Virus record (IMG/VR): IMGVR_UViG_3300029787_000052
Location: 1 to 57,432 of that record
DNA from: a virus
Lineage: Duplodnaviria; Caudoviricetes
Reading direction: 5' to 3' (one strand)
Length of the DNA stretch: 57,432 nt
This document shows positions 1-57,432 of the stretch, piece after piece; position 1 is the first letter of the stretch; every line of letters starts with the position of its first letter. The notes beneath the pieces were generated by a model. The model made no database searches. It worked only from the letters and a program-made list of their open reading frames with translations, and was not told where the DNA came from. A program made the position numbers and the translations under genes.

Positions 1-99
1 AAAGACTGGCCTAACTTTTTAGCCGCATGGCTTATGGCTAACCAACAGGCTAGTCCTTCGACAGCGGCTATGAATGCTGTTCGTTCAAGAGAGCAAGCC
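1..99. repeat. Terminal overlap with 57334-57432 (circular assembly signature)
   Basis: nt 1-98 are identical to 57334-57431; nt 99 is C versus G at 57432 (GCC/GCG, both Ala in the giant ORF). The repeat lies inside a continuous reading frame. Confidence 0.95.
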
Positions 100-3000
100 C
101 TTACGCAAGCGGCGCAAGCTCCTGTTTCACAAGAAGTAGAAGCTGGTTTAGCGGCAGATAGGTTGTTTGATTTCTGGATGGCGATGGAGGCAGGTGGGGA
201 ACTGCCTTCAGGGGGCGCACAGAAACTCTATGATTTTATAGACAGTGGGCTTCTGCGAGAAACGCGGTCATGGATGGGTGACGATGTACGCGGCGGGGCA
301 CCTGCCGTTGCAGACGTTCATTCTCTTAGAGACACTGGGTTTGTTGACGCAACTTACCAGCAGTTTTTGCAGGAAAACTACGGTGTGCGTGTTGAGACTG
401 ACACGTCAGGCTCACCGAGCGAAAATCAATACGAGCGTTCAGGCGACTTTATGAGGGCGCTTAGTGATCACCTCAATGACATAAACTACAAGGGCGGCGG
501 CTGGACGCCATATCAGGTGCAGTCTGTTGGCTGGATGGCGACGACTAAATTCCTTGGTAAGCCGGGACAAACAGCCGAAGAATCAATTCTGTTTAATATC
601 AGGAACTTGCCATTTGAGGTAGCTTTCGGAGAAGGCTCTCCTTACTCCGAGACCTTTGTAGATTATTATCAGCTACCTGCTATCGGACAAAAGGAAGTCA
701 CGGGTATAGCTGCCGAAGCTGCTGCTAATTTTGCCAGAGAAGTGACAGGCGTTGCTGAAATAAATCGCTATGTTTCTACGGGCGGTTGGCTTGACGATAG
801 TCTTAATCCAAACATGGTAGAGCAAGTTGTTGCTTCTCCAGAAGCAATGATGGATATGGCTAGTATTATCGGTTATGCGGTAGAGCAAACAGGAATGTTT
901 CCCTATCGGATTGTGCCTACCAAAACAGGCAAATCTAAGCTTGCTTTAAAAATTCGCCCCAGTGATGTGTCAAAAGATTTGTTGAATAACGACACAAACA
1001 TGGCCATACTGTGGGACAAAATACGCAATGCTGAATTAGCAGGAACTAAGAAAGCTGAAAAACAGTTAGCCAAAGAACGCAAAGCTGGAAAAGAAGATGC
1101 CCGGTTGCCTGATGAGGATAACATTATTACAGGGTACACTGGGACTATTGACGAGAATGGCAATTCTTCAATGCTTATTCTCTTTGATACAAAGAAAGCC
1201 GGTTTGTTGGCTAGGTTGGAGCCTGATGGAGATGTGATAAGCGCCATATCTAAAATTTCTGAGGAAATGGGTTTTGATTTAGATGTTGAGGCAGCTTATT
1301 ACGAAGGCGATTATATAGAAAATAACTGGACGGAGGACAAAGAAGGTGGTGGCTACTTACAAAGGATTCATCAAAGATACGGACCCGCTGTTACAGAGCG
1401 GATCAAGAATTTTAAGCGGGGCCAACTTGAGCCGCTACTCGAAGACTCCATCACAAGCGCAAGACTCAAGTATGGAAACAGAGAAAAGTTTAGTCGCCGG
1501 AGTACCGACAGCGCCGTCGAGAGCCGCATACCCGACAGAGCAGGACTATCTCGAAGCGAGAGACAGTTACAGGCACAGGATAGGTCGGGTGCTACCGCGC
1601 AAGAAGAAGTAAGGGTAGAGGGGCTACCAGCTTCCTACAACATACCCGGAACAGGCCCAGTTCCCACTGAGCCGTTTGCACCAGCAAGACAAGCTGCCCG
1701 TGAATACGGTCAAACCGTTGGGCGCAGTGTGCCTGAGCTTGTTGGTAATTACGTTTACGGACCAGTGGACGGAGAACGGGCAACTCGTATAGCGCAAGCA
1801 TACGAAGACATGCCGAACACTCCAGAGGATTCCTTTACGCAAGCGGCCTATGAAGCTTTGGCAGAAGAGGTCATGACGCAATATGACTTCATCAAAGACA
1901 CTGGTCTTGAGGTAGAGTTCTATCCATCTGACGTTGACCCTTACGCTGCCTCGCCGCGTGAGATGATCGAAGATGTGAAACAGAACAACCATATGTATGT
2001 CTTCCCCACTGACGCAGGGTACGGCATGGACGGGGTAACCGCTGAAGAAGTGGCTGATAACCCTATGCTGCGCCTTACTGACGAGTTTATATCAGGTCGT
2101 CGGGCTAGGGTGAATGACATCTTCCGGGCGGTTCATGATTACTTCGGGCACGTTAAGGAAGGCTTTGGGTTCAGGGCTGCTGGAGAAGATGCTGCATATG
2201 CCAGCCATGCGGTTATGTTTAGTCCGCTCGCTCGCGCAGCATTAGCGAGCGAGACCCGTGGCCAAAACTCTTGGGTCAACTTCGGACCAGCAGCCAAGCA
2301 AAATGAAAACGCTTCTGCTGTTGATACAGTTTATGCAGACCAGAAAGTTGGGATACTGCCAGAGTTTGTTATTAACGAAGGTATTGAAACCCTTGTAGAG
2401 CCTGTCAATCTTCAAGAGCTTCAGGATGAAACTGGCTTTAATACGCAAGAAAACTTTGTTCCTGATGAAAGGTTTTCTCGTAAGTACCCACAAGACCCCC
2501 GTAACGCTGCGCCAAACAGGTTTGTAAAAAGAGCAAGGGCAGACGGAACACGCAGTGATGTTTGGGGTAAGCTTCCATTTAACACTAAATTTTTAAATGT
2601 GCGTATGTCTGCTGGTCAGAATTACGAGACTGGTGGTTACGGTCAGGCTCACGCTGGTCTACACGATGATGATTTCAGGGGCATAGAAGATTTACCGTTT
2701 ACGAGTTCAGATGCTGCTGTTGCTGCTGCTTTAGACGCATACACCGAGGCACGGGTATCTGGTGTTGACAAGTCAAGATTTAAGTTTGTAGAGAACCGCC
2801 GTGCAGGGTCTCTTGAAATGTTGTGGAAACCCGTGGGTTCAAAGACACGGGTTAAAGTTGTTTTCGATACAGTGACCGATGCTAAGTCGGGGCAAGAGTT
2901 CCTTGGTATAACCACGGCCTATCCTGACAGCGAGGTTATGACAAGGGACAACCTCCGTGAGGACGTAGAAAATTACAGGAAAGCAAATCACTTAGGGCCA

Positions 3001-5922
3001 AAGTTTTCTTCCTTGTCTACTACGGCTCAGGAAACTGCGCTTACCTTCAAAACTAAGAAGCCAACTGATCGTCCTGTCTTGAAGCTTAACAAGGCTGCAA
3101 AGGAAAAGTTTTCTAGGGGCGGCACGGTCAAGGACGAAAGCCCTGAAGTTCAGGAAACAATCAACAGAACGCAAGCTGTTAATACAGAGGAGACCGCTGG
3201 TCAGGCTTGGCTTAGTGCAATCTTTGGTGATTACACAGACAGCGTATTGTTTAGCAACAACTGGGACTTGATTAAAAGTAAATTTAGAAAAAATATACTT
3301 AACAAGTATGAAGCTATATCTGTTCTTTCCAGAAAAGCAGCAAAGGTCGCGGGAGAAGTTTTAGCGGATGCCAACGCATTCTCTGCTGTTCTCATGGCTG
3401 AACAACATGCAGGGGTAACAAAGGCTGCTTTCTATGACGGGGTTCCTGTTTACGATAAGGAGCTAGGGTTTACCTATGTAACGAGTGATATCGAAGGGCA
3501 ATCAATTCGCGGCCTTGCTTTTATACTAAGCCCTGTCCTAGAGAACCGCGTTGTTTCTCAGTTTGGCACCTATGCTCAGGCAAGAAGGGCGCAAAGACTT
3601 AATGCAGAGGGTCGCGACTCTGGCATGACTGATCAGGACGTTGTTAACGGTTTGTCGCTTGGTGACAAGTATGATTACTTTGCAGAAGTCTTTGATGAAT
3701 ATCAGGTCTGGAACAGCTACCTAGTTAAGTACATGGTTGACACTGGGTTGATCACAGCCGAGATGGGCCAGACGTGGATTGATACTGCTGATTATACCCC
3801 CTACTACAGACAGTCTTTAGAGGGCGCTGACGGAACTCAAGACCTGACATACTTCTATCCCGGCGATCCTACGCTTGGACCCTCTGGTCAGGGCTTGGCC
3901 CCCCTAGAAGGAGAGAAAAGAACTCGCATTCCCCTAGACGGTAAGCGAGTTGACAAGCGTCTTGTTGGCGCTGGTAGGGTGTTCCAAATAGATGTAGACG
4001 GGCAGGTTCAGCCGGAACAGTACGACAGTTACAACAAAGCCGTCGCGTCTGTTCGTGCCCTAAGACAATCTAATCCAGATGTTTCGGTTGATCTTTATGC
4101 CGCCCCTCGCAGGGTAGATGATTTTCTGGATAACGTCGCAAGGAACACAGCTACAGCAATACAGGGCGGCATGAAAAATATAGCCGCTCAAAGGGTTATC
4201 AGAGACTCCTTGACCTTGGGAGTAGCTTCTGAGGTTGCTCCTGATAAGTCAGGAAACAAACCAAGGCAAACTGTTCAGATACGAGTGGACGGTGTTGATC
4301 GTTACTTTGAAATTGTTGATGAGTTTCTCTACACGAGCATGACAATTCTGGGGCAGAACACCGACAGTGTTATGGATAATGTGTTTGTCGGTTTTGCAGC
4401 AAGCCCAGCAAGGGTGTTGAGGGAACTTGTTACAAGAGACCCCGGATTTATGTTGCGTAATATGATGCGTGATACGTTAAGCGCGTGGGTTACATCGGGG
4501 CAAAATTACATACCAGTTATTGATAGCGCAAAAGGCGTTATGGACGTTATACGAGGCAGCGAGTCTTCCGAGGCTTTAAGGCTGGCTGGGGTTTTCGGGG
4601 GGTTTGATTTTGCCGGAACCCCTAAAGACATGGCTAAATACATTAAGAGTAAAACAAAAACTCAAAAACCATCTGGCGTTTTAGAGACAGCGGCTAGTCC
4701 TTTTAAAAAATTATGGGATGCAACTACCGTTGCAACCAATGCCTCAGAAGCAGCAACAAGAATTGCGGTCTATAAAAGGGTTTTGGAAAAAACTGGCAAT
4801 GAAGCCCAAGCTGTTTTTGAGGCGCTTGAAGTTCTTAACTTTAGCAGACGCGGGTCAAGCGCAACCATTCGCCTTATTACTGCTGTTACTCCCTTTTTGA
4901 ATGCACGATTGCAGGGGCTAGATGTCCTGTATAGGGCTGGTTTTAGCAAAGAAACGGCAAACCCAAACGCTTCTCGAAAGGCGGCTCTTGCGAAGGCTTC
5001 TCTTATTGTAGGCACAACAGCTTTGTATAGCGTGCTTATGAGAGATGCAGATTGTTACAAGAACGCAACTGCTGAAGCCAGAGATTTAAACTGGTTTGTG
5101 CCCACACCTTTTGGGGGGGCTTGTGTAAAAATACCAGTTCCGTTTGAGGTTGGTTTCTTATTTAAGACAATACCTGAGCGGATTATGCAATGGTCGTTTG
5201 ACTCTGACACAGGGCAAGATGTTCTAGATTCTTTGGGGCGAGGCATCACCTCAACACTAGCAGTTAACCCCCCTCAGATTATTACTCCTGCTGTAGAGGT
5301 GGTTACTAATCACTCGTTCTTTTCGGGGAGGGAGATTGTTCCTGCTTATATGAAGAACTTGGACCCTGACTACCAGAAGTTTCAAGGGACCAGCAGTCTT
5401 GCACTTAATCTCGGCAAACAATTAAATATGTCTCCGCTTCAAATTGATCAGCTTATTAAAGGGTACACCGGGACATTGGGAAGTTACGGTTTGTCAGCCG
5501 CAAGTCATATGATAGATGCGTTCCAATCTCCCGATAAGCCGCTCCCGCCCGATAAGAATTGGTACAGCCTTCCTATGGTGAGGAGCTTCTTCCAAGACCC
5601 CAACAGTCGCGGCACTGTCATTCAGTTCTATGAGCTAGACCAGCTTGTTAAAACAGCCGTTAATACTTTTAAGGCGGCTGAACGTGAAGGCGATGTCGAA
5701 AAGATTACAGAGATTGCGACTAAAAGAGGGGCGGTTCTTGCCTTGGAGAATGAGGTAAAGAAAATTCGTCAGCAGCTTAAAGAGGTGCGAGAACAGAAGA
5801 ACCAAATCCTCAGGTCACCGATGGACCCGGAAGCGAAGAGGGAGTTGCTTAACATCATTAGGCAGCAGGAATTAGCTATCACCGCAGCGGTGCCGATACT
5901 CAGACAGATAGCAGTGCAATGA
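1..5922 (+). CDS. C-terminal part of giant polyvalent internal-virion/ejection protein (continues from 54046; about 3069 aa total), with LPD38-like C-terminus
   Basis: In frame with 54046-57333 across the junction. Motifs: K..F/ADVHSLR/WTPYQVQSVGW (HhH-glycosylase-like), NDIFRAVHDYFGH..GE..ETRGQNSW, GGYGQAH..ITTAYP (BECR-like), and KIPVPFEVGFLFKTIPER (LPD38-like). Confidence 0.85.
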   Translation, partial: KDWPNFLAAWLMANQQASPSTAAMNAVRSREQALTQAAQAPVSQEVEAGLAADRLFDFWMAMEAGGELPSGGAQKLYDFIDSGLLRETRSWMGDDVRGGAPAVADVHSLRDTGFVDATYQQFLQENYGVRVETDTSGSPSENQYERSGDFMRALSDHLNDINYKGGGWTPYQVQSVGWMATTKFLGKPGQTAEESILFNIRNLPFEVAFGEGSPYSETFVDYYQLPAIGQKEVTGIAAEAAANFAREVTGVAEINRYVSTGGWLDDSLNPNMVEQVVASPEAMMDMASIIGYAVEQTGMFPYRIVPTKTGKSKLALKIRPSDVSKDLLNNDTNMAILWDKIRNAELAGTKKAEKQLAKERKAGKEDARLPDEDNIITGYTGTIDENGNSSMLILFDTKKAGLLARLEPDGDVISAISKISEEMGFDLDVEAAYYEGDYIENNWTEDKEGGGYLQRIHQRYGPAVTERIKNFKRGQLEPLLEDSITSARLKYGNREKFSRRSTDSAVESRIPDRAGLSRSERQLQAQDRSGATAQEEVRVEGLPASYNIPGTGPVPTEPFAPARQAAREYGQTVGRSVPELVGNYVYGPVDGERATRIAQAYEDMPNTPEDSFTQAAYEALAEEVMTQYDFIKDTGLEVEFYPSDVDPYAASPREMIEDVKQNNHMYVFPTDAGYGMDGVTAEEVADNPMLRLTDEFISGRRARVNDIFRAVHDYFGHVKEGFGFRAAGEDAAYASHAVMFSPLARAALASETRGQNSWVNFGPAAKQNENASAVDTVYADQKVGILPEFVINEGIETLVEPVNLQELQDETGFNTQENFVPDERFSRKYPQDPRNAAPNRFVKRARADGTRSDVWGKLPFNTKFLNVRMSAGQNYETGGYGQAHAGLHDDDFRGIEDLPFTSSDAAVAAALDAYTEARVSGVDKSRFKFVENRRAGSLEMLWKPVGSKTRVKVVFDTVTDAKSGQEFLGITTAYPDSEVMTRDNLREDVENYRKANHLGPKFSSLSTTAQETALTFKTKKPTDRPVLKLNKAAKEKFSRGGTVKDESPEVQETINRTQAVNTEETAGQAWLSAIFGDYTDSVLFSNNWDLIKSKFRKNILNKYEAISVLSRKAAKVAGEVLADANAFSAVLMAEQHAGVTKAAFYDGVPVYDKELGFTYVTSDIEGQSIRGLAFILSPVLENRVVSQFGTYAQARRAQRLNAEGRDSGMTDQDVVNGLSLGDKYDYFAEVFDEYQVWNSYLVKYMVDTGLITAEMGQTWIDTADYTPYYRQSLEGADGTQDLTYFYPGDPTLGPSGQGLAPLEGEKRTRIPLDGKRVDKRLVGAGRVFQIDVDGQVQPEQYDSYNKAVASVRALRQSNPDVSVDLYAAPRRVDDFLDNVARNTATAIQGGMKNIAAQRVIRDSLTLGVASEVAPDKSGNKPRQTVQIRVDGVDRYFEIVDEFLYTSMTILGQNTDSVMDNVFVGFAASPARVLRELVTRDPGFMLRNMMRDTLSAWVTSGQNYIPVIDSAKGVMDVIRGSESSEALRLAGVFGGFDFAGTPKDMAKYIKSKTKTQKPSGVLETAASPFKKLWDATTVATNASEAATRIAVYKRVLEKTGNEAQAVFEALEVLNFSRRGSSATIRLITAVTPFLNARLQGLDVLYRAGFSKETANPNASRKAALAKASLIVGTTALYSVLMRDADCYKNATAEARDLNWFVPTPFGGACVKIPVPFEVGFLFKTIPERIMQWSFDSDTGQDVLDSLGRGITSTLAVNPPQIITPAVEVVTNHSFFSGREIVPAYMKNLDPDYQKFQGTSSLALNLGKQLNMSPLQIDQLIKGYTGTLGSYGLSAASHMIDAFQSPDKPLPPDKNWYSLPMVRSFFQDPNSRGTVIQFYELDQLVKTAVNTFKAAEREGDVEKITEIATKRGAVLALENEVKKIRQQLKEVREQKNQILRSPMDPEAKRELLNIIRQQELAITAAVPILRQIAVQ

Positions 5923-7809: not shown

Positions 7810-8152
7810 TTGCGGTAGCTGGAACCCAATTAAGCAGGTAGAGGTAAAGACCGTTCAAGTTGAGCGGGTTATTCCCACACAGCAGCGGCCACGCCCACTG
7901 AAGCTGAGTGATATAACGTGGTATGTCGTAACAGATCAGAACTTTGATCAGTTCAAAAAGAAATACACCAAGAGAAATGGGGAGTTTTTGTTCTACGCAT
8001 TTAGTGTGAGGGACTACGAAACTCTTTCTCTTAATATGGCTGAGTTACAGAGATACATTGGCCAGCAAAAACAGATTATTATTTACTACGAGCAAGCGGT
8101 AGAGCCTAAGCCGAAGCCTGAGAAAGGCATTAATGACAAGCCGAAGAAATGA
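7736..8152 (+). CDS. Outer-membrane lipoprotein spanin (Rz1-like)
   Basis: Lipobox-like LLLLSSC, proline-rich, overlaps the 3' end of the Rz-like gene. Confidence 0.65.
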   Translation: MERRSFLRDWKALLLCPPTLLLLSSCGSWNPIKQVEVKTVQVERVIPTQQRPRPLKLSDITWYVVTDQNFDQFKKKYTKRNGEFLFYAFSVRDYETLSLNMAELQRYIGQQKQIIIYYEQAVEPKPKPEKGINDKPKK

Positions 8153-19915: not shown

Positions 19916-19948
19916 AAAAAGGGCGGCACCCATGATTAGGTGCCGCCC
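19916..19948 (-). terminator. Rho-independent terminator
   Basis: GGGCGGCACC-8 nt-GGTGCCGCCC followed by TTTTT on the minus strand. Confidence 0.8.
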
Positions 19949-20039
19949 GTGAGCCACGAGATTCCGAAAGGTTACCGTTTACATCTCCGCTCACTGACGG
20001 GGTTTTGAGTGGGGCACTCGCCGTCTGATCCCCCCACAG

Positions 20040-20372
20040 TCATGAGCCGACGTAACGCCAGACTTTTATCTCCCGACTGTGGTTAGACTTTCGAGAAGAC
20101 TTGATCCTTTCACCCGTAAACTCCCATTCCTTTCCCCGGAACAGAGAGCCAGCCGCATTGCCCAGCGACTCGGTGATGCCTTCCTTCTCGAATGCTTTGC
20201 CGACATCGTCAGCGGTTACGGTTCTGCTGCCGCGAAGCATGGCGATTTGTCTTGCGACGTGACGCGCATGGTCAAGCAACATATGCTTGCCGCCATACTC
20301 TGCGGCAGTCATGCCTTCTTGCTTAAGGCGATTGCTTTCCGCGATGTCGAACAGGTCTGGATCGTTGTTCAT
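20040..20372 (-). CDS. Hypothetical protein (possible wHTH)
   Basis: VTADDV...NAAGSLFR..W...S.R...H.R.I.VW pattern; co-directional with the operon. Confidence 0.7.
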   Translation of the reverse strand: MNNDPDLFDIAESNRLKQEGMTAAEYGGKHMLLDHARHVARQIAMLRGSRTVTADDVGKAFEKEGITESLGNAAGSLFRGKEWEFTGERIKSSRKSNHSREIKVWRYVGS

Positions 20373-20373
20373 G

Positions 20374-20526
20374 TCAATGGCCTTTCATTTCAATAATGAC
20401 TTGGTCGAATGCCGGTGCCAGAACGATGAAACCAGCGACCAAAACTGCTCCGATGAATGCGACGATGATGGACAATATGATTTCCTTCTTGTCGCGCTTT
20501 GCCCAGTCGGGACGGTGTTTATTCAT
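20374..20526 (-). CDS. Small single-TM membrane protein
   Basis: GGAGG RBS before ATG 20526; hydrophobic segment IILSIIVAFIGAVLVAGFIVLA. Confidence 0.65.
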   Translation of the reverse strand: MNKHRPDWAKRDKKEIILSIIVAFIGAVLVAGFIVLAPAFDQVIIEMKGH

Positions 20527-20550
20527 GATTTCCTCCAAAATAACGGCGAT

Positions 20551-20604
20551 TCTCATCGACCTCGTGAGTAGTTGGTGGTGCAACCACCCACGAGATCAAC
20601 GAGA
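20551..20604 (-). other. 24-bp RNA stem (RNase III-type processing site candidate)
   Basis: Fully paired only as minus-strand RNA, with 5 G-U pairs and a 6-nt loop; intergenic. Confidence 0.7.
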
Positions 20605-20614
20605 GAAGCCATGA

Positions 20615-21907
20615 TTATCGGCTGATCTGAACGACTTGCGCCCAGTCAGCCTGTTTCTCGATGGTCTCAAGCCAATGCTGATGCTGTATGCATGCAGCAA
20701 TCAGTGTCGGGCATGACGGCTCAGGGATTTCGTCGTAGTAATCCTCGCAATCACTGAACACGATGATCGCATCGACATCCAAGCCTTCTTCTTCGATATG
20801 CTCGAAAGCACCCTTGGTGTTTGTGCCACCATAGAAACGAGTGCGGTCGATCTCGTCACCAGCCTCGACCACCTGCGTGTCTCTCACATAGTGTGTGAAC
20901 TTGATGACGTGGCTGGTGATCTCGAACTCGGACGCGATCAACTGCAACTCCTCACAGAACTGGGCGAACATCTCGTCATCGACTGATGATGACACGTCAA
21001 GCAGAACTGCAATCTCACCGCCGACATCGACACGGCGGCTAGGCAGCGGCACACCCACTGCACGAGACCGGCGACCAAGCCGCTGGTATGTCGTGCCAGA
21101 TGGGCGACCGTCCAGCAGGAACCGACGCAACACCGACCGCCAGTCAACCTGTGGGCGGCGAAGCATATCAATGTGCTGCTTGAAGGGGCTGTCTTCCTTG
21201 CCAGCCTCGCCAGATATCATGGCGGCGTTCAGCACAATCTCAGTCCACTTGTCCTCTTGCTCCTGTATGTCAGAGGCAGAGAGAGCGGAGCCGTCATCGT
21301 TTGTGCCGTCGATCACCACTCCGTGGCCTTGCATGTCCACTGGCTGGTCGTCACCCGACTGAGCAGGTAAAGCGGGAGCGTCTTGAGAGTCGCCGTTCTC
21401 TGCGGCTTTCGCGTCGTTACCCTGAGCATTACCCTGAGCATCGCCCTCATCACCACCCTTTGGTGATTCGCCCTCGCCTTGCTGACCAGCGGCTGGTGGT
21501 TCTGGCTGATCCTCAAAGAGCTTTCCGTAGATGTCTTCTGCGGACTGTCCGTCCCAAGCCAGATCAACCAACCCGTCTTCGGGCAGAGAGAAACCGGCAG
21601 CAACCAAGATGGCGTTGATGGCGTAGTCGGCGGCGATGTTCCAGTTGTTCTGGTCACGCTGACCTCGACGCAGATGGTGCTTGAAGATGACGTGGCAAAC
21701 CTCATGGGCAACCACTCCCTTGAGGTGAGCGTTCGAGTGCTTGTCAACAAACGCGGGGTTGAACAGGATGCGCTTGCCATCGGTCGCCATCGTCTCAAAC
21801 TGATCGGTCTCGACCAGATCAAGACGCATGGCGATGTTACCGAAGAACGGATTGTCCAGCAGTAGCTGGGTCCGCGCCTTGGTGATCTTCTGATGTGCTA
21901 GTGACAT
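20615..21907 (-). CDS. Metallopeptidase-VWA protein (DUF2201-like)
   Basis: TMATDG, AHEVCH (HExxH), WNIAADYAIN, acidic linker, MIDAS DVSSS..GGT..FSD. Confidence 0.9.
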   Translation of the reverse strand: MSLAHQKITKARTQLLLDNPFFGNIAMRLDLVETDQFETMATDGKRILFNPAFVDKHSNAHLKGVVAHEVCHVIFKHHLRRGQRDQNNWNIAADYAINAILVAAGFSLPEDGLVDLAWDGQSAEDIYGKLFEDQPEPPAAGQQGEGESPKGGDEGDAQGNAQGNDAKAAENGDSQDAPALPAQSGDDQPVDMQGHGVVIDGTNDDGSALSASDIQEQEDKWTEIVLNAAMISGEAGKEDSPFKQHIDMLRRPQVDWRSVLRRFLLDGRPSGTTYQRLGRRSRAVGVPLPSRRVDVGGEIAVLLDVSSSVDDEMFAQFCEELQLIASEFEITSHVIKFTHYVRDTQVVEAGDEIDRTRFYGGTNTKGAFEHIEEEGLDVDAIIVFSDCEDYYDEIPEPSCPTLIAACIQHQHWLETIEKQADWAQVVQISR

Positions 21908-21919
21908 ATCAATACCTCC

Positions 21920-22786
21920 TTACTGACCGATGAAATCATCGATCTGGTTCATGATCTGACGAGCGTTGTCAGCGACTTCTTGACGCTTGCCCTCGTCTTT
22001 CTTGAGGGTAGAGGCATCGGTCTCGGTCAAGCGCAGCCCGATATCCTTGGCAAGTTGCTCAAGCCGTGGATCATCGCCGACGTTCAGCGATGGCAGCAGA
22101 TCGGCAATGTCACGCACGTTGCCGACCAGACTGTCGTAAAGCTTGGCACCTTTCTTGTCGGGATCGAAAGCTTCGAGACGCTCGACCATGTTGCTGATGG
22201 CAGAGTAGGCGCGGTCGAAACACTCGCTGGTCACCTGCGTGACACGCTCGTCATTCTTGCGCTGCATCTGCGTGACGATCTTCTGCTTGTCTTCAGCAGA
22301 CATGGCCACCCGAAAGTCGCCAGCCTCAGGGACAGGCCGAACCTCGACATCCGAATGAAACAACTCGGCACATGCCTCGACGCTGGGAAATATGTCAGCG
22401 TCGAACAGGTCGCCCAGTCGATGCGGTGCCTGATCAACCAACTCAGGATAGACCTTGAGGAAGTCAGCCACCGCGATGTCGAAGGCGTCGGTCTTCTCAC
22501 GCATCACTTCGGTGAAGCGGTCATAGCCCTTGGCCTTGATGATGTACCAGCCATCCTCGGACCACGGCGCAGTCTCGGCGGCGAACACATTGTAGAGCGC
22601 ACCACGAGCAGTCTTCACCGCCTTGTATGCGGGGTGGGTAGTATCGATCAGCGTCTTGATGACCTTGACCGCCCGTTGGTTGGCGTTCTTCTGGTCCGCG
22701 ACTTCGAGCGATACGCCCTTGTCAGTCTTGGAGAAGCTGGGGTATTTCACCGACAGCCTCACAAGCAGTGCTTTTTCTGAAAGCAT
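21920..22786 (-). CDS. Conserved helical protein (DUF3150-like) between AAA and VWA genes
   Basis: ALLV.LS...K.DK, T.PW, LGDLF...FP, LN...DP.L pattern; GAGGTG RBS. Confidence 0.75.
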   Translation of the reverse strand: MLSEKALLVRLSVKYPSFSKTDKGVSLEVADQKNANQRAVKVIKTLIDTTHPAYKAVKTARGALYNVFAAETAPWSEDGWYIIKAKGYDRFTEVMREKTDAFDIAVADFLKVYPELVDQAPHRLGDLFDADIFPSVEACAELFHSDVEVRPVPEAGDFRVAMSAEDKQKIVTQMQRKNDERVTQVTSECFDRAYSAISNMVERLEAFDPDKKGAKLYDSLVGNVRDIADLLPSLNVGDDPRLEQLAKDIGLRLTETDASTLKKDEGKRQEVADNARQIMNQIDDFIGQ

Positions 22787-22812
22787 AATTCACCTCTCGG
22801 ATTGATGTTGAC

Positions 22813-22828
22813 GAGTCACTGATGACTC
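22813..22828. promoter_or_regulatory. 16-bp palindromic element GAGTCACTGATGACTC
   Basis: Arms extend to ACGAGTCA/TGACTCGT; 21 bp identical to the 26308 copy. Confidence 0.7.
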
Positions 22829-22839
22829 GTAGATGCATT

Positions 22840-22895
22840 TGCATCTATCAGCACACCGGATGTGATGTGCTGGTAGATGCAGGGGCCGAAGCCCC
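22840..22895 (-). other. Intergenic 18-bp stem plus C(UUCG)G hairpin
   Basis: Stem 22840-22881 with one mismatch; GGGGC-UUCG-GCCCC at 22882-22895. Confidence 0.6.
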
Positions 22896-22902
22896 CACAC
22901 CG

Positions 22903-23889
22903 TTAGCCGAGTTCCACGTCGGCATTGTCTGCGCGGTACTGGCAGACCGCCTTGGTCTCAGCCAGATCGGGATGGCGCGAGAGAATGTCACGCACCAGCA
23001 CGACACCAAACTCACGGCCTAGTCGTTTGCCGTAGATCAGCGCAGCCTCGATGGTGTCCTCGTCCACCCGCTTGGCGATGTTGGCGACCAGCGCGATAGT
23101 CACGTCGGTATCCGTAGGCACCTCGCAGTTCTCAGGGTCATCGAACACCTTGCTGACCGGGATCAGCCGGTCGAAGATGCGGAGGAACCCGGCAAACTCA
23201 GCCGCACGTCCCTGCCCAATCAGACCGGATAGCGCGGGAAGATAGTCCCGGCTTTCGATATGCGGCAGCAGCGCAGACACCGCCGACCACGACCGTGCAG
23301 TCGGGCTGACCTCGGCCTTGGGGTCGAACTCTTGCAGGGCATCAGGGCGATGCCGCACATAGCCGACCACACGATGGTCGATACCGGACTGGCCAGCCCA
23401 TGCAGCCCAGTCGTCAACGTCTGCTTCGAGCGGCACGACAGTCAGGCGGTCACGCACATGGGTTGGCAGTGGGCGACAACCCGCCTTGTCTTTGGAGCGG
23501 TTGCCAGTGGCAATCACCGACCAGCCGTCAGGCAACTGATAGCCGTGCAACTCACGTTCCAGCAAGAGACGTGCGGCACCGTTGAGGACGCCTTCGTCAC
23601 CCTGCGGTAACTCGTCAATGAGAAGCACACCGACATCCCCGTCACGATCTGCACGGGGTAGCCAGTCCATTGGCTTGAAGGTGGTCATTGCCCCTGACAC
23701 GTCAGGAATGCCAGTCCAGTCTTCACGGGCCATCGTCGGCACCGGAGCGTAGATCAGGTTGCCGCCCAGTTGCTTGGCGATCTGTCGGGCCAAGGCAGTC
23801 TTGCCCAGTCCGGGTTCGCCTTCGAGATATGGAACGCCGCCGGACTTGAGGATGGCGAGGGTGATGCGTAAAGCTTGAGAGTATTTCAT
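22903..23889 (-). CDS. MoxR-like AAA+ ATPase
   Basis: Walker A GEPGLGKT, Walker B LLIDE, ATGN, RDRL, PTARSW. Confidence 0.92.
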   Translation of the reverse strand: MKYSQALRITLAILKSGGVPYLEGEPGLGKTALARQIAKQLGGNLIYAPVPTMAREDWTGIPDVSGAMTTFKPMDWLPRADRDGDVGVLLIDELPQGDEGVLNGAARLLLERELHGYQLPDGWSVIATGNRSKDKAGCRPLPTHVRDRLTVVPLEADVDDWAAWAGQSGIDHRVVGYVRHRPDALQEFDPKAEVSPTARSWSAVSALLPHIESRDYLPALSGLIGQGRAAEFAGFLRIFDRLIPVSKVFDDPENCEVPTDTDVTIALVANIAKRVDEDTIEAALIYGKRLGREFGVVLVRDILSRHPDLAETKAVCQYRADNADVELG

Positions 23890-23891
23890 GG

Positions 23892-24125
23892 TTAGCTTCC
23901 TTCCGGGTTGTGCTTGGTTTCAAAAATGGTGGACTGCCACGTCATCAGGGCGACTTTGGCAATGACGACTGACAGCGACTTGCGGGTTGGCAATCCGCGA
24001 TCAGCCAGTTCTTCTCTGGCCGCACGGGCAATCTCAGAGATAGACGACTGAGAATGCAGATCGCACTCGAAGCGAGACTGCATATCTGATGCAATCTCGG
24101 TGATAGTTTCGGCTGAAACAAACAT
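23892..24125 (-). CDS. Small hypothetical protein
   Basis: AGGAGG RBS, ATG 24125, 77 aa. Confidence 0.65.
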   Translation of the reverse strand: MFVSAETITEIASDMQSRFECDLHSQSSISEIARAAREELADRGLPTRKSLSVVIAKVALMTWQSTIFETKHNPEGS

Positions 24126-24138
24126 TTGATTTGCCTCC

Positions 24139-24330
24139 TTACTTACGGGCCGCGACCATTGCGCGGATATGACGCTCACGTTCACGAGCAAGTTTTTCCT
24201 CACGCTTGTGCTGGCGCTTGATGGCGGCGACCTGTTCGTCGCCAAAGACGCCTGTCGCCCACATCCCCATGATGGTGATGACAAAGAAGACGACGGTGGT
24301 GATGACGACGAAGCTTGCAAAGATTTCCAT
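24139..24330 (-). CDS. Small membrane protein
   Basis: N-terminal TM and charged C-terminus; preceded by the 18-nt shared leader. Confidence 0.7.
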   Translation of the reverse strand: MEIFASFVVITTVVFFVITIMGMWATGVFGDEQVAAIKRQHKREEKLARERERHIRAMVAARK

Positions 24331-24358
24331 GATAGTTCCCTTCGGAGTTGATGTTGAT

Positions 24359-24374
24359 GAGTCACTGGTAACTT
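24359..24374. promoter_or_regulatory. 16-bp palindromic element GAGTCACTGGTAACTT
   Basis: Exact consensus match abutting the 3' end of hammerhead 2. Confidence 0.7.
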
Positions 24375-24445
24375 CTGGCTACCCAGACCGCCGCCTGATG
24401 GCGACGGTTTCGACCCCTGCCAGAGGGTCATCGTCAGTGGGCTAG
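24375..24445 (-). ncRNA. Hammerhead ribozyme, type I
   Basis: CUAg-CCCA|CUGACGA|U|GACCCU-cuggca-GGGGUC|GAA|ACCGUCGCC-auca-GGCGGCGGU|C|UGGG-UAG; GUC triplet with C17 at 24386; loop II CUGGC is complementary to the 3' GCCAG. Confidence 0.88.
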
Positions 24446-24627
24446 TCGTTCCCAAGAACACATTTCCTCAGGGTCTCCAGAGACTGATCGGGAAGATCAG
24501 CAATGAAGCGCAGGTCTTCGTCGTGACGAAGACGTTTGCGGATAACGTCAAGCACGGGTATCGGCTTGATGTCGCCACGCTCATGCGCGGCTTGAATGAT
24601 CCGATTAGATCGGGAGTGGTCAACCAT
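24442..24627 (-). CDS. Small hypothetical protein
   Basis: AAGGAG RBS; 61 aa; its stop codon forms part of hammerhead stem I. Confidence 0.65.
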   Translation of the reverse strand: MVDHSRSNRIIQAAHERGDIKPIPVLDVIRKRLRHDEDLRFIADLPDQSLETLRKCVLGND

Positions 24628-24654
24628 GTGTGTCTCCTTTGGTTGGTGTTGGGA

Positions 24655-24798
24655 TTAGTCGGTCCAGCGGTCGATCATGGCCTTCGCTTCGCGCAGCAAC
24701 TCTGCGCCATCGGTCCAGCATTCTTCGGTGGCGGGGCGCATGTTGAAGTGACCGGCTTCCATGCGCTCGATGATCCAGCCTTTGTAGTGATGTTCCAT
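24655..24798 (-). CDS. Small hypothetical protein (47 aa, not in ORF track)
   Basis: MEHHYKGWIIER...LREAKAMIDRWTD; GGGGAG RBS. Confidence 0.65.
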   Translation of the reverse strand: MEHHYKGWIIERMEAGHFNMRPATEECWTDGAELLREAKAMIDRWTD

Positions 24799-24817
24799 GT
24801 CAGTCTCCCCAGTTGGT

Positions 24818-24839
24818 GCCGGGAGCCGAAGCCCCCGGC
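24818..24839 (-). other. C(UUCG)G stable hairpin after first early gene
   Basis: GCCGGGGGC-UUCG-GCUCCCGGC; the G-U pair and loop favour the minus strand. Confidence 0.65.
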
Positions 24840-24845
24840 GATTGG

Positions 24846-25490
24846 TTACGCTGCCTGTTTGAGGACAGTCACGTTCTCATGACCGTTCGAGATTGCGACG
24901 GCGGCAGATGTTGACCGCTCCAGCAATTCCCAGACAGCGGTCATGCCCTCGACAGTGTCGAGGTCGAGACCGTTTGCCTTCACCAGTTTCTGGGCGAGGG
25001 CGACCAGCTTCTCTTCGTCGCTGACCTCTTCCACCGGGTTGAGGTGTTGGACCAGCTTGTTGTAGCTGTTGATCTCAAGGGCATCGCAAATGTCAGCGAC
25101 TTCGCGGCTGACCTCAGCAATCGCGTTGACCCACGCACTGCTTTCCTGAGTGGTCCTGCTGATCGCGACAGCCCCGTCTCCGATGACCTCGGCGAAGTCG
25201 TCGGACTTGGCAAGCTTCTGAGCATTCTCAGCAAGCTTCTTGCCCTTGCCCGACTTGTTCTTCTGGCCGAGCACGTCGAAGCAGACCGTTTCGAGGAATG
25301 CACCGGCATCGGCCTTGCGGCCTTTGCGGTTGCGAAGGATGTCAGCGTTGATCGCCTCGACTGCGATCAGGGCGATCAGGCTGAACTTGTCTGCTTCAAC
25401 ATTCAGTTCGGAGCGGAGGCTGGAAATCTCACCCTCTTTGACGGAGATGGTGTTGGCGACGTTGGCGGCTTCTTGGATAAGGTAGGTCAT
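24846..25490 (-). CDS. First early protein, unknown function
   Basis: 214-aa helical ORF downstream of the promoter and hammerhead 1. Confidence 0.8.
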   Translation of the reverse strand: MTYLIQEAANVANTISVKEGEISSLRSELNVEADKFSLIALIAVEAINADILRNRKGRKADAGAFLETVCFDVLGQKNKSGKGKKLAENAQKLAKSDDFAEVIGDGAVAISRTTQESSAWVNAIAEVSREVADICDALEINSYNKLVQHLNPVEEVSDEEKLVALAQKLVKANGLDLDTVEGMTAVWELLERSTSAAVAISNGHENVTVLKQAA

Positions 25491-25516
25491 GTTGTAGTTC
25501 CCTTCGGAGTTGTGTG

Positions 25517-25571
25517 TGTGTTTCGATCCTGCTGGATCATCATCAGCGGTGCAGCATCAGCACCGGACACA
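25517..25571 (-). ncRNA. Hammerhead ribozyme, type III
   Basis: UGUGU|C|CGGUGC-ugaugcu-GCACCG|CUGAUGA|U|GAUCC-agca-GGAUC|GAA|ACACA; GUC triplet with C17 at 25566; loop I UGCU is complementary to loop II AGCA. Confidence 0.9.
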
Positions 25572-25676
25572 ATTTTTCTTTCGGCTGGGTCTGATCAGGT
25601 GCCCTGCGCTTCGAGGATGCCTTGTGTCCCCCTGCGTTGTGGTCCGCGTTGTTTTTGCCTCGCGATGGCCGTGAGC

Positions 25677-25730
25677 ATTATATAGGCCCATCGGCTCCCA
25701 TCGTCAACACATCATTTCAAATTAATTTGA
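25677..25730 (-). promoter_or_regulatory. Early sigma70-like promoter with upstream perfect palindrome
   Basis: TTGACG-N17-TATATAAT (25707-25677); TCAAATTAATTTGA at 25717-25730. Confidence 0.65.
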
Positions 25731-25829
25731 GGGGGTGATTCTCCCGTATCGATGGCCAGCAAATCACACTGACAGAACAGCGGGTGTGAGCTACCATCTG
25801 ATGGTGATCAATCAGCATGAGGTGACGAC

Positions 25830-26327
25830 GTGGCACAGGATGGTTTGAAGGTGGTCGGCGGGACCGAGAGCGGCAAGTCGTCGGGCAAGGGGCGGCGATC
25901 GCTGACGAGTAAGCAACAGGCATTCGCTGATGGGGTGGTGTCGGGACTGAGCCAGAGCGAGGCTTACCGCCGCGCATACTCTGCGGAGGGCATGAAGCCA
26001 TCGGCGGTCCACACTGAGGCAAGCACGTTGGCTGCACACCCTGAGGTATCCCGAAGGATAGATGCTGGATTAGGGGAGAAGGAGAGGGCAGCACAGCGCA
26101 GCGGCCTCTCCCGGAGGGCGATGGTTCTCGAACGGCTGGAGGTGGAGGCAATGACTGCTGAAGCAGATGCCGCTCGTATCAGGGCGCTTGAACTGCTGGG
26201 AAAACATGAACGGTTATTCGTGGACGTGGTGGAAAATCAGGAGGACACTCGCAGCGCAGATGAACTGCGCGGGGAGTTGGAAGACAAGCTTGCCGATCTG
26301 ATCGGTCGAGTCACTGATGACTCGTAG
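25830..26327 (+). CDS. terS: Terminase small subunit
   Basis: LTSKQQAFA....G.SQSEAYRRAY, AS.L...P.V..RI and RIRALELLGKH motifs; GAGGTG RBS with GTG start. Confidence 0.85.
   Translation: MAQDGLKVVGGTESGKSSGKGRRSLTSKQQAFADGVVSGLSQSEAYRRAYSAEGMKPSAVHTEASTLAAHPEVSRRIDAGLGEKERAAQRSGLSRRAMVLERLEVEAMTAEADAARIRALELLGKHERLFVDVVENQEDTRSADELRGELEDKLADLIGRVTDDS
26308..26323. promoter_or_regulatory. 16-bp palindromic element GAGTCACTGATGACTC
   Basis: At the 3' end of terS. Confidence 0.7.
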
Positions 26328-35357: not shown

Positions 35358-36266
35358 ATGGCTATTGCAAGAACACAACTCCTTAAAGAACTTCTTCCGG
35401 GCCTAAACGCCCTGTTCGGTTTGGAGTACGAAAAGTACGAAGACGAACACACGATGATCTACGAGACAGAAAGTTCTGATCGTAGCTTTGAGGAAGAAGT
35501 TAAGTTGTCTGGATTTGGTTCCGCCCCGGTTAAGCCCGAAGGCGAAGCTATTTCTTACGACAGCGCACAAGAGTCATTTACGGCTCGGTATAACCATGAG
35601 ACGGTTGCTATGGGCTTTTCCATTACCGAAGAGGCAATGGAAGACAACCTGTATGACTCGCTCTCGGCTCGTTATACCAAGGCTCTGGCTCGTGGCATGG
35701 CTTACAGCAAGCAGACCAAGGCTGTTACTCCCCTGAATACGGGGTTTGACACCTACCAGTCTGGTGATGGTGTAACGCTGTTTAATGCTTCTCACCCAAC
35801 GGTTGCGGGTGGCACGAACTCCAACCGTCCAGCAACAGCGGCTGACTTGAACGAAACCACTCTTGAGAATGCGGTAATTGATATTGCTGCATACGTTGAT
35901 GAGCGTGGTCTTCTTATTGCAGCCCGTCCGCGTAGGTTGATTATTCCACCTGCACTGACATTTGTTGCAACTCGTATTCTCCAGTCGGAGCTTCGGGTTG
36001 GAACTGCTGATAACGACATCAATGCTATTCGTAGCAACGGTTCGATTCCAGAAGGCTATGAGGTCAACCACTACCTGACCGATACCAATGCCTTCTTTAT
36101 CGTTACCGATGTTCCTAATGGCATGAAGCACTTCGAGCGCACTCCCATGCAGACCAGCATGGACGGTGACTTCGATACTGGTAATGTTCGTTACAAGGCA
36201 CGGGAACGCTACTCCTTCGGAGTATCTGACCCTCTCGGAATTTACGGTTCTCCGGGTTCTTCCTAA
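35358..36266 (+). CDS. Major capsid protein (Mu gpT-like, HK97 fold)
   Basis: MAIARTQLLKELLPGLNALFGLEY, SDRSFEE, GDG..LF...HP, DFDTGNVRYKARERYSFG.SD; followed by a strong terminator. Confidence 0.9.
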   Translation: MAIARTQLLKELLPGLNALFGLEYEKYEDEHTMIYETESSDRSFEEEVKLSGFGSAPVKPEGEAISYDSAQESFTARYNHETVAMGFSITEEAMEDNLYDSLSARYTKALARGMAYSKQTKAVTPLNTGFDTYQSGDGVTLFNASHPTVAGGTNSNRPATAADLNETTLENAVIDIAAYVDERGLLIAARPRRLIIPPALTFVATRILQSELRVGTADNDINAIRSNGSIPEGYEVNHYLTDTNAFFIVTDVPNGMKHFERTPMQTSMDGDFDTGNVRYKARERYSFGVSDPLGIYGSPGSS

Positions 36267-36303: not shown

Positions 36304-36352
36304 ATACATCCTGACGGCGAAAGCCGACACTAGCCACGACAGGAGATATAAC

Positions 36353-37069
36353 ATGGCTGTGCATTTTACTGGACCGATCCTTCATGCAGGTAAGGATGGA
36401 AGCCGCAAATGGTTTTCTAACCTGCCCATCACCGCAAGCCCTGACTATGTCGTTTATATGGACGACTTCACGGGTATTGCTCTAGATTCAACAAATGACT
36501 GGACAGTGATCAAAGACAGCAGTGCTTCTGCTGCTCTTGGTGCTGACGCTGAAAGCGGGACATTGGTCCTGTCAAGTCAGGCAACCACCGACAATGATGG
36601 TGCTTCTGTACAAGGCAACGAAATTTTTGCCGTTAACGCAGATCGCGACATCTGGTTTGAGACCAAGCTTACCCCTACGGATGCAGAGGGTAGCAACATG
36701 GATATCTGTGTTGGTCTGACGGTTAACTTTGCGACCAACCCCGAAGCAATGCTTACTGCTGCTGACCGTATTGTGTTTCAGGTAAACGATGGTGACAGCA
36801 ACATTCTCTGCAAGACGGAGAAAGACGGTACGGAAACTTCAACGGATTCGGGGATTGATATTGCCAGCGGTACGGCAGTGACGCTCGGTTTCCATGTAAT
36901 CAACACATCAAGTGTTGAGTTTTTTGTAAACCGGCTTCTTGTAGCTACGCATACTGCCAATATCCCTGACGATGAGAATATGACTATTGGCGCTATGGAG
37001 CTTTCTGGTTCTGCTACAGGCACGAAGTCTATGGCGGTAGATTACCTGTTCGCTTCTCAAACTCGTTAG
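36353..37069 (+). CDS. Putative virion protein (beta-sandwich)
   Basis: HFTGP N-terminus, YMDDF, beta-rich; AGGAG RBS. Confidence 0.7.
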   Translation: MAVHFTGPILHAGKDGSRKWFSNLPITASPDYVVYMDDFTGIALDSTNDWTVIKDSSASAALGADAESGTLVLSSQATTDNDGASVQGNEIFAVNADRDIWFETKLTPTDAEGSNMDICVGLTVNFATNPEAMLTAADRIVFQVNDGDSNILCKTEKDGTETSTDSGIDIASGTAVTLGFHVINTSSVEFFVNRLLVATHTANIPDDENMTIGAMELSGSATGTKSMAVDYLFASQTR

Positions 37070-57000: not shown

Positions 57001-57432
57001 CCAACAGCCGAAAAGTTCTCTAGAAAACGTGCCCGTAAGACACCTGCTCCAGTTGGAGATAACCCGTTCCCCACCCCTCCCGAAGACGAAATACAAGCAC
57101 GTCTAGGCAGGAAGGCAAAGAGGACAGATGTTGCGGGTGCTACCGAGTCTACAGGACCACGAAACCCACGCCAAGAAATCGTAAACGATGATGGGGAAGT
57201 AGTCGCTGTTGTTGGCAAGATTACATTTGACGACTGGATCAATCAGACAGAAACTCGTCTTGATGATGCCGGAATAGCGGCGGCACGGGAATGGTATCCA
57301 GAAGCAGCCAAATCGTATCAAAAGTATTTTGGCAAAGACTGGCCTAACTTTTTAGCCGCATGGCTTATGGCTAACCAACAGGCTAGTCCTTCGACAGCGG
57401 CTATGAATGCTGTTCGTTCAAGAGAGCAAGCG
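54046..57432 (+). CDS. N-terminal part of giant polyvalent ejection protein (absent from ORF track; runs off the end into 1-5922)
   Basis: ATG 54046; I found no stop when translating this frame by hand to 57432. Gly-zipper hydrophobic segment about 54480-54650, EG.TE..QE, zincin HEFIH (56539-56553) with EEAVAE (56707-56724). Confidence 0.9.
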   Translation, partial: MAEITIEGIGDVEVGDEFFTLDAAGQQAYANEVARQISLGQTAVGTFAPSVYPYAARDKAGFFDRVGESFESGVSKVRGLSASAVEATGELTGSEDLTGFGREGREAFVKREQEREIPAIQFTDIDNLGDVGEWLTDTIPEQTVMFAPSIAGGLVGAKLGAKAGAAAGAFFGGVGAIPGAAIGGTIGGLLGAFIPSLTLGVGEVQESIKSKDSSVVNPEAAFAGGTAIAALDSILPGKIGGQLVRRLGTESAEEVAKRTLLKPIKREYLKAAGKGMAVEGITEAMQEAIAEVTAVEATGQELDGAELRKMMINAGAAGALMGGGVRTASERFKKTRTQDEVDQIQKLLDKKEAEREARARETITPDPDGPLLLSYNEAEFTTDSPSQVVETIIDESVNDVAPTGLGEDIGAGAPLGPFTVREMPNGGFAVVNAAGEVRTPSFQTLDLAQEAANLLTERVPTAIEAAEVEFTQAAASRALEDNKIEETAATLDAARETVTPLGFFSREEVGKKIASQIDRKRTMAVSLRPGEIVQNDGLYTIEEVAETGASNKALSAIIAKKKPLTEDASLNVTVRDIEDLASTKNIRFGDESFKTFALRTTGKSMPQNMSQVQRNALFERLDAMPEFKEETSIPVIKYPHFTAQQIADVAKAIRETGTAEVWKDTSKPPPKAAKVSDKLILEAVGAPNIKGARRKEVAGEIRRELIRRGILDKNGTIKRRLVLRGSPERTAPPSVKKQELLQRLKPLARAINDRFQARVKANPALEGVRLKFNNLIESIESGEIQADAEGVFRAEEEAGQLIKTIRLALDPVVDPSKSDQENISALAEVLDHEFIHAAYEAGVVTDQEKAALESFVKKAKRPGTDKTYYEDRVEALRDNPPSEEILVEEAVAEAFRDYAAGRRVFPPKTRNIFRKIAEFFRLVKEAAADADIITGNEIFQRLDAGVAPLRGRRSGGRATETTATPVNLNAAETATVEREGRVPDFPTAEKFSRKRARKTPAPVGDNPFPTPPEDEIQARLGRKAKRTDVAGATESTGPRNPRQEIVNDDGEVVAVVGKITFDDWINQTETRLDDAGIAAAREWYPEAAKSYQKYFGKDWPNFLAAWLMANQQASPSTAAMNAVRSREQA

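Follow-up and report, generated by a model that had tools for sequence, protein, structure and literature searches.

Clustered hammerhead ribozyme motifs at cassette joints in an uncultured marine tailed phage

Phage hammerheads and the locus

Cleavage both in vitro and in E. coli has been demonstrated for clustered hammerhead ribozymes that flank phage genes; the published account describes several hammerhead types on one strand, flanking genes or short gene blocks of varying identity, with loop–flank pseudoknots, and proposes that they divide long phage transcripts into mRNAs of gene length (Perreault et al. 2011, PMC3088659). A later review, from 2019, suggests the processing of polycistronic transcripts as a role and calls the biological role of phage and bacterial hammerheads largely elusive (PMC6765202). 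The window analysed here is the whole 57,432-nucleotide (nt) stretch of IMG/VR virus record IMGVR_UViG_3300029787_000052 (Duplodnaviria; Caudoviricetes), which contains a type III hammerhead motif (ribozyme 1) and a type I motif (ribozyme 2) on its minus strand, with their predicted cuts 1180 nt apart. The locus has in common with the published clusters the different hammerhead types on one strand, the flanked genes of varying identity, the proposed role and, as predicted from the sequence, the loop–flank pseudoknots, and is a new instance of the phenomenon published in 2011, the idea of a circular product included (PMC3088659); the hammerhead alignments of Perreault et al. may already include these marine sequences. 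It differs in belonging to an uncultured marine phage, in its unrelated orphan genes, in an extra U after A9 in both ribozymes, and in the position of the ribozymes at mosaic joints and indel boundaries, each then followed by one shared leader. Besides the coincidence of ribozymes with mosaic joints, it adds a series of cassette variants, the leader shared after cleavage, and a stop-codon rule. We consider it fairly probable that the motifs are working hammerheads that act as portable RNA-processing and insulating modules of a marine tailed-phage group.

The early polycistronic mRNA of phage T7 is cut between its genes by RNase III, which gives mRNAs with hairpin-protected ends; in the window the RNA would cut itself, with no host enzyme, and would leave 5′-OH and 2′,3′-cyclic phosphate ends instead of 5′-phosphate and 3′-OH ends. 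In the RiboJ-type engineered insulators of Lou et al. (2012), a hammerhead in the 5′ untranslated region (5′ UTR) is said to remove the promoter-dependent leader and to leave a constant 5′ end. The likeness to RiboJ lies in the position of ribozyme 1, where unrelated upstream sequence meets conserved downstream sequence; the difference is that ribozyme 1 is a natural element, to which insulation is ascribed by analogy. The PeSL cassettes of T4-type phages are alike in that short conserved motifs flank small orphan open reading frames (ORFs) and mark modular shuffling, the motif being a promoter–terminator pair there and a catalytic RNA here (PMC2839356, PMC4122927).

The two motifs and their conservation

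25517..25571, minus strand: ribozyme 1, type III hammerhead, with a complete core and three helices read from the sequence
24375..24445, minus strand: ribozyme 2, type I hammerhead, with core and three helices likewise complete

Both motifs contain the conserved hammerhead core (C3 U4 G5 A6 N7 G8 A9, G12 A13 A14, the A15.1–U16.1 pair and a cut after H17), and both deviate from the standard core by one extra U after A9. Several other lineages have it too (L002, L067, L068, L071, L072 and one L076 copy). In the chrysanthemum viroid hammerhead an extra A10 is tolerated, and a U there gave 3–4-fold faster cleavage (PMC3705267).

In ribozyme 1, stem III pairs UGUGU (25571–25567) with ACACA (25521–25517) over 5 bp, and the cut, GUC/C, falls between 25566 (C17) and 25565. 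Stem I is a closed hairpin (25565–25547), the core segment CUGAUGA (25546–25540) is followed by the extra U (25539) between A9 and G10.1, and stem II (GAUCC-AGCA-GGAUC, 25538–25525) leads into GAAA (25524–25521). Loop I (UGCU) and loop II (AGCA) offer a possible 4-bp contact, with 96.9% of cells paired and no double changes. In ribozyme 2, stem I pairs CUAGCCCA (24445–24438) with UGGGUAG (24385–24379), with one bulge or wobble; the core segment CUGACGA (24437–24431) and the extra U (24430) are followed by a 6-bp stem II (24429–24412), GAAA (24411–24408), a 9-bp stem III (24408–24387) and the cut, GUC/U, between 24386 (C17) and 24385. Loop II of ribozyme 2 (CUGGC) can pair with GCCAG (24379–24375) 3′ of the cut to form a pseudoknot, and the loop II and 3′-flank complements, compared by eye, differ among three type I subfamilies (CUGGC/GCCAG, UGGU/ACCA and AUGAU/AUCAU). 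The first-pass annotation had placed the cuts after 25566 and 24386, bracketing 1180 nt (25565..24386), and its coordinates are all correct.

Relatives were reached via the 214-amino-acid (aa) protein encoded just after ribozyme 1 and via a downstream ATPase, and comprise four to five viral contigs and ten metagenome contigs (marine), several of them designated below by L numbers. Hammerheads occur at corresponding places in all of them, and the catalytic cores are invariant. The 8 sequences of type III have 96.2% of their cells paired, and 10 of 25 pairs have changed on both sides, a level reached in 0 of 500 shuffles; sliding the pairing partners, as a control, cut pairing to 30–51%. A type I covariance model trained on ten sequences gave 19 matches (13 distinct) in 15 sources, among them a 'middle' ribozyme of some relatives on which it had not been trained (30–34 bits). 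In the 13 distinct type I sequences 94.1% of cells are paired, 10 of 22 pairs have changed on both sides and 0 of 500 shuffles scored as high, although this alignment was fitted by the model and the sequences are related, so that the shuffle counts overstate independence and are not to be taken as probabilities.

When the custom models were run over the whole window with filters off, ribozyme 2 scored 99.1 bits and ribozyme 1 74.9 bits (25576–25502), the next best matches reaching 14.3 and 9.4 bits; the window's own ribozymes were within the training sets of both models. A loose CTGANGA...GAAA pattern matched the window 18 times, and only the two ribozymes had three helices. Among the other matches, the one at 23948–23918 was rejected since it lies inside a coding frame with no stem II beside the GAAA, and the one at 15109–15080, which has no stem II, was discarded too. 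Because relatives keep both motifs, with covariation in their helices, we judge them to be credible hammerheads on the evidence of their sequences.

Ribozyme 1 also occurs in a long form. In six relatives (L004:2932–2975, L005:2931–2973, L073:591–634, L074:194–237, L075:764–806 and L077:10708–10793) a 14–20-nt hairpin is inserted between A9 and G10.1, at the position of the window's single extra U, and the inserted hairpin covaries between lineages (GCCGC/GCGGC, GGGCA/UGCCC, GAGCA/UGCUC and GCC/GGC). An alternative drawing of the long form with an outer GCC/GGC stem II, taken from the Rfam alignment, was discarded as it fails in L005, L075 and L077, which the inserted-hairpin model fits too. 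The long-form ribozyme 1 of L008 scored 31 bits against Rfam Hammerhead_3 (gathering 48.5). A degenerate ribozyme 1 pattern matched in two further viral contigs, otherwise unrelated. One of the two, the 74.6-kb contig L076, has a pair of type III hammerheads resembling ribozyme 1 on one strand, 5 kb apart (2804–2879 and 7861–7933), the second directly after a C(UUCG)G hairpin and with a ribosome-binding site and a 67-aa ORF downstream.

Cassettes, mosaic joints and stop codons

The segment between the cuts and the gene that follows it comprise these features:

25498..25511, minus strand: leader AACUCCGAAGGGAA, a 14-mer that follows ribozyme 1 and precedes the start codon (AUG) of the 214-aa ORF
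24846..25490, minus strand: 214-aa ORF, an orphan, predicted all-helical, of a phage-only family
24819..24838, minus strand: 8-bp hairpin with a C(UUCG)G tetraloop, separating the 214-aa ORF from the 47-aa ORF
24655..24798, minus strand: 47-aa ORF, an orphan
24442..24627, minus strand: 61-aa ORF, an orphan whose TAG (24444–24442) lies in the 5′ strand of ribozyme 2 stem I
24139..24349, minus strand: second leader copy (24349–24336) and 63-aa ORF (24330–24139), first gene of the 3′ cleavage product

The three ORFs and the C(UUCG)G hairpin that the first-pass annotation had put inside the bracket are confirmed by reading of the ORFs and the sequence, as is its statement that the third ORF stops within stem I of ribozyme 2. 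Among the relatives the order of these pieces varies, as follows:

Window: ribozyme 1, 214-aa, 47-aa, 61-aa, ribozyme 2, 63-aa, further genes, ATPase
L006, L007, L008, L067 and L070: 47-aa and 61-aa genes separated by an additional type I ribozyme with a 57-aa ORF
L068 and L071: 214-aa gene preceded, in this order, by ribozyme 1, a small unrelated ORF and a type I ribozyme
L068: additionally without the 47-aa gene
L071: no ribozyme downstream of the 214-aa gene
L009, L073, L074 and L075: other small ORFs between the 214-aa gene and the next ribozyme

The three-ORF unit is thus not a conserved entity. What is constant is a hammerhead immediately 5′ of the 214-aa gene, present in 13 of the 13 records that cover its upstream side; ten records have two or three hammerheads (with the 3′-cut match of L075 included). 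The 214-aa protein of L067 is 100% identical to that of the window, yet L067 has the additional cassette of hammerhead and 57-aa ORF, which indicates a recent insertion or deletion. A contig of sequencing run X20 likewise has ~252 extra bases at the joint of this cassette; runs X1 and X8 have the form of the window. The phage group provides a compact natural series in which the number of ribozymes accompanying the same genes is one, two or three.

The leader is shared along with the ribozymes. The window contains two identical copies of the 14-mer, one after each ribozyme. The leader, CAACUCCGAAGGGAA, follows the cut in 2 of 2 cases in the window, and 9 of 9 copies of its 15-mer form in three related viral contigs follow a hammerhead core. 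A wider search with the 15-mer across viral contigs gave 61 matches at 55 loci, and all but the 9 in the three close relatives look like chance.

Identity between pairs of loci was compared over 200 nt upstream and downstream of cut 1:

Window and L008: upstream 29%, downstream 80%
Window and L068: upstream 81%, downstream 56%
L008 and L071: upstream 88%, downstream 51%
L009 and L073: upstream 32%, downstream 85%

Identity on the two sides is uncoupled at cut 1, so that exchangeable cassettes meet at the ribozymes. The window and L004, in the full alignment, are homologous from the 5′ strand of stem III onward. The assembly graphs of four metagenome runs, compared as contigs (three of DNA, one of a kind not recorded), break off within ribozyme 1, from where they lead into a number of different flanks, and depth in run X1 is 258–344 over 25472–25599, against a baseline of 79.5. 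Our literature searches, which were not aimed at that question, returned no paper on hammerheads at phage mosaic joints.

The coincidence of mosaic joints with ribozyme 1, and the gain and loss of cassettes bounded by ribozymes, would also be expected if the hammerheads served mainly as DNA-level recombination linkers and RNA cleavage were of little consequence, a role with a precedent in the promoter–terminator motifs of PeSL cassettes in T4-type phages (PMC2839356, PMC4122927). Such linkers would have no need of pairing-preserving double changes in all three helices or of an invariant core, and stems I and II vary between lineages, which makes them poorer homology for recombination. We regard recombination as distinctly unlikely to be the main function, and it is better viewed as a second role of the ribozymes than as a rival to cleavage.

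A further regularity concerns the ORFs that precede the type I hammerheads. In the phage group an ORF stop lies between −4 and +9 nt from the core in 13 of 13 type I hammerheads, −4 being the case in which U4-G5-A6 is itself the stop codon; the ORFs concerned are of 47–133 aa and belong to at least five unrelated families. The first-pass annotation had suggested that a terminating ribosome could modulate ribozyme 2, which is plausible and gains family-wide support from these stops.

This spacing, kept despite at least five ORF families, also bears on an account in which cleavage is regulated: a ribosome on the upstream ORF would cover stem I and the core, and both the cut and the fate of the downstream gene would depend on translation. 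In the uncut RNA of ribozyme 2 a flank helix would enclose the ribozyme and hide the ribosome-binding site of the 63-aa ORF, as regulation of this kind might use; that helix is only marginally above shuffles (z −1.85; 9 of 200 fold as well), the flanks of the middle ribozyme have, by eye, no such complement, and covariation is uninformative because both strands of the helix hardly vary. Dense packing of genes and signals, which is usual in phages, may account for the spacing as well. We consider regulated cleavage unlikely as an account of the locus, and return to working hammerheads that process and insulate.

The flank helix itself appears in the centroid structure predicted for the uncut RNA (24322–24500, minus strand), in which pairing of the flanks masks the AUG of the 63-aa ORF together with its ribosome-binding site. 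Cleavage at ribozyme 2 would part its two strands.

No Pfam or PHROG family matched the 214-aa ORF, whose closest clusters in the protein atlas are viral hypothetical proteins and whose structure model has a mean predicted local confidence (pLDDT) of 64; its differences from relatives fall mostly at third codon positions. The 47-aa ORF is present in 6 of the clustered loci, with differences too few for a coding test. In relatives the 61-aa ORF has an in-frame 27-nt insertion, and its differences are mainly at third codon positions. The 63-aa ORF has a weak match to PHROG 14464 (membrane protein; E 0.0032). The C(UUCG)G hairpin has no U tract after it, is not listed as terminator-like, and takes a 7-bp form in relatives.

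The small ORFs of the block share short linkers on their 5′ side, CACCAAC and then a GGAG-type ribosome-binding site (24630–24655 and 24800–24820, minus strand). In L068 (3160–3200) the UUCG hairpin is joined straight to the 61-aa ORF via the CACCAAC linker, which indicates that cassettes are also lost at joints other than ribozymes.

Proposed processing and the fate of the excised RNA

25677..25707, minus strand: promoter-like site, TTGACG (25707–25702) then TATATAAT (25684–25677), with a spacer of 17 or 19 nt
19921..19948, minus strand: terminator-like hairpin of 12 bp with a T run, the likely end of the leftward unit

Both motifs lie at the head of a leftward (minus-strand) block that extends from ~25700 to the terminator-like hairpin at 19948–19921, and the TTGACG...TATATAAT site is kept in L068. 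Judging from these signals, transcription starting at the promoter-like site would place a leader of ~105 nt ahead of cut 1, and the operon transcript would run from near 25700 to near 19930, both limits being estimates. Ribozyme 1 would strip off the context-dependent promoter leader while its own body stays behind as a structured 5′-OH end, and ribozyme 2 would cut downstream of the third ORF, at a distance from its stop codon of 4 nt plus one ribozyme length. This would yield a linear, tricistronic mRNA of 1180 nt, whose 5′-OH end is itself part of the ribozyme 1 stem I hairpin and whose 3′ end carries the 2′,3′-cyclic phosphate at the base of ribozyme 2's 9-bp stem III. Structured ends of the 5′-OH and cyclic-phosphate kind should resist 5′-end-dependent and 3′-exonucleolytic decay. 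The downstream product would begin with a 5′-OH and an unstructured C/A-rich leader, and would carry the same ribosome-binding leader as follows ribozyme 1. Through structured ends and a shared leader, neighbouring cassettes would thus be uncoupled in stability and in 5′-UTR context, and in the DNA the conserved ribozyme sequences mark the joints of cassette gain, loss and exchange. If the hammerheads do insulate cassettes in any context, they would link an RNA-level function to modular phage evolution.

Release of a discrete RNA by double cleavage, as the first-pass annotation had proposed, is in keeping with what was found, namely credible hammerheads on the same strand and no terminator-like site listed by the terminator scan between them; cleavage at both would give 1180 nt with 5′-OH and 2′,3′-cyclic phosphate ends. 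Its description of the products as early, or as the earliest proteins, was an assumption; the genes are the first of a leftward operon.

Several findings weigh against working hammerheads that process the transcript, in addition to the kinship and model fitting behind the type I counts. Neither motif matched Rfam at gathering score, and ribozyme 1 gave no Rfam hit at E up to 10. Ribozyme 2 reached 25 bits (23–28 bits in L008) against RAGATH-1-hammerhead (RF03152), for which gathering is 56.3, and is by Rfam's rule a relative of that family and not a member; the two have in common type I topology, a 9-bp stem III, a 5′ hairpin, the GUC/U site, and an inner stem III of nearly the same sequence (cgcca..aggcg). 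In two-dimensional folding, stem III of ribozyme 1 is weak (P 0.09, ribozyme alone), and an 8-bp leader helix of GGACACAA (25629–25622) with UUGUGUCC (25572–25565) spans cut 1 with P 0.98. The promoter-like site fails the spacing rule of the promoter scan. None of the sequencing runs that hold the stretch (20 of the 23 listed) is recorded as RNA, which is why we infer cleavage in vivo, and with it transcript limits and effects on stability and translation, rather than observe it.

The competing leader helix is absent from L068, although L068 shares the leader, and when the upstream sequence was shuffled 16 of 30 shuffles left stem III at or below its native probability. Because the helix is not kept and shuffled leaders do no better for stem III, we take it as a caution only; the comparison of native with shuffled leaders is itself uninformative, stem III being too weak for the energy model. 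The helix over cut 1 would nevertheless suit the view that one or both motifs are inactive relics, or misfolded here, and that no 1180-nt RNA is made, as would the extra U in the core region of both and Rfam scores under threshold. That the extra U recurs in several lineages, that a U there is compatible with fast cleavage in a viroid hammerhead (PMC3705267), and that compensatory changes surround cores that do not vary otherwise make inactivity very unlikely in our estimation.

The first-pass annotation had further inferred a possibly circular, stabilised mRNA. On this reading a host RtcB-type ligase would join the ends of the excised RNA and give a circular, exonuclease-proof 1180-nt mRNA for the three proteins. 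RtcB is common in bacteria, and internal initiation by bacterial ribosomes would permit translation of a circle. The premise that RtcB-type ligases join 5′-OH and 2′,3′-cyclic phosphate ends is established and fits the expected chemistry (PMC3458531). Viroids, retrozymes and twister-flanked circles are alike in having such ends, joinable by tRNA or RtcB ligases, and are described as arising from repeats of one ribozyme or from designed closing stems, as mostly non-coding and as eukaryotic (PMC5680766, PMC7229834); the window, in contrast, has two unlike ribozymes and no closing stem at the termini. Since the two ends of the excised RNA come from ribozymes of different type, whose junction would rebuild neither body, self-ligation is not expected. 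The predicted fold does pair nt 51–66 with 1093–1108 (P ~0.5–0.6), but this nearest long-range helix lies 50 and 72 nt inside the termini; nucleotide 1 pairs within a 6-bp hairpin and nucleotide 1180 is 2 nt from a 9-bp helix, so that the ends are locked in hairpins.

Neither RtcB (PF01139) nor an RNA_ligase (PF09414) is encoded in the 57-kb virus record. The relatives do not keep the bracket, which in five records contains a third hammerhead and in L071 has none at its downstream side, and among the 20 runs holding the locus there was no RNA-recorded run and no junction read. Perreault et al. named circular products as possible, and state, with data not shown, that circular or spliced products of triple arrangements were sought and none detected (PMC3088659). 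Circularisation is accordingly not supported, and we prefer the linear mRNA. If a circle did form, the ribozyme-bounded cassettes of the relatives would yield circles of other sizes, and it would to our knowledge be the first case, among bacterial viruses, of ribozymes producing a natural circular mRNA that encodes protein; a circular mRNA would be striking if true, but is a long shot and highly improbable.

The virus record looks complete (57,432 bases; CheckV 100%) and encodes a terminase, a Mu gpT-like capsid protein, a primase-helicase, an ERF recombinase and a large polyvalent protein. No named phage matched when 2.4 kb of the locus was compared by blastn with 50,697 phage records, and neither a profile of the 214-aa protein nor a 31-nt pattern of the ribozyme gave a match among the 185,579 species genomes searched for a host. 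The leftward block (20000–26000), which holds the ribozymes, the ATPase and DUF2201/VWA genes, is richer in G+C (0.55–0.59 at 20–26 kb) than the rest of the window (0.46–0.52), which suggests that it is a module of different origin. An open frame is cut at both record ends (1–5922 and 54046–57432, plus strand); the two parts are in phase and when joined would encode one protein of ~3,100 aa with an LPD38 domain, so that the record looks circularly permuted and not truly linear. Just 3′ of the Mu gpT-like capsid gene (35358–36266), the window matches the Rfam Mu-gpT-DE RNA at 36309–36355 on the plus strand (45.8 bits, gathering 49, E 2e-07).

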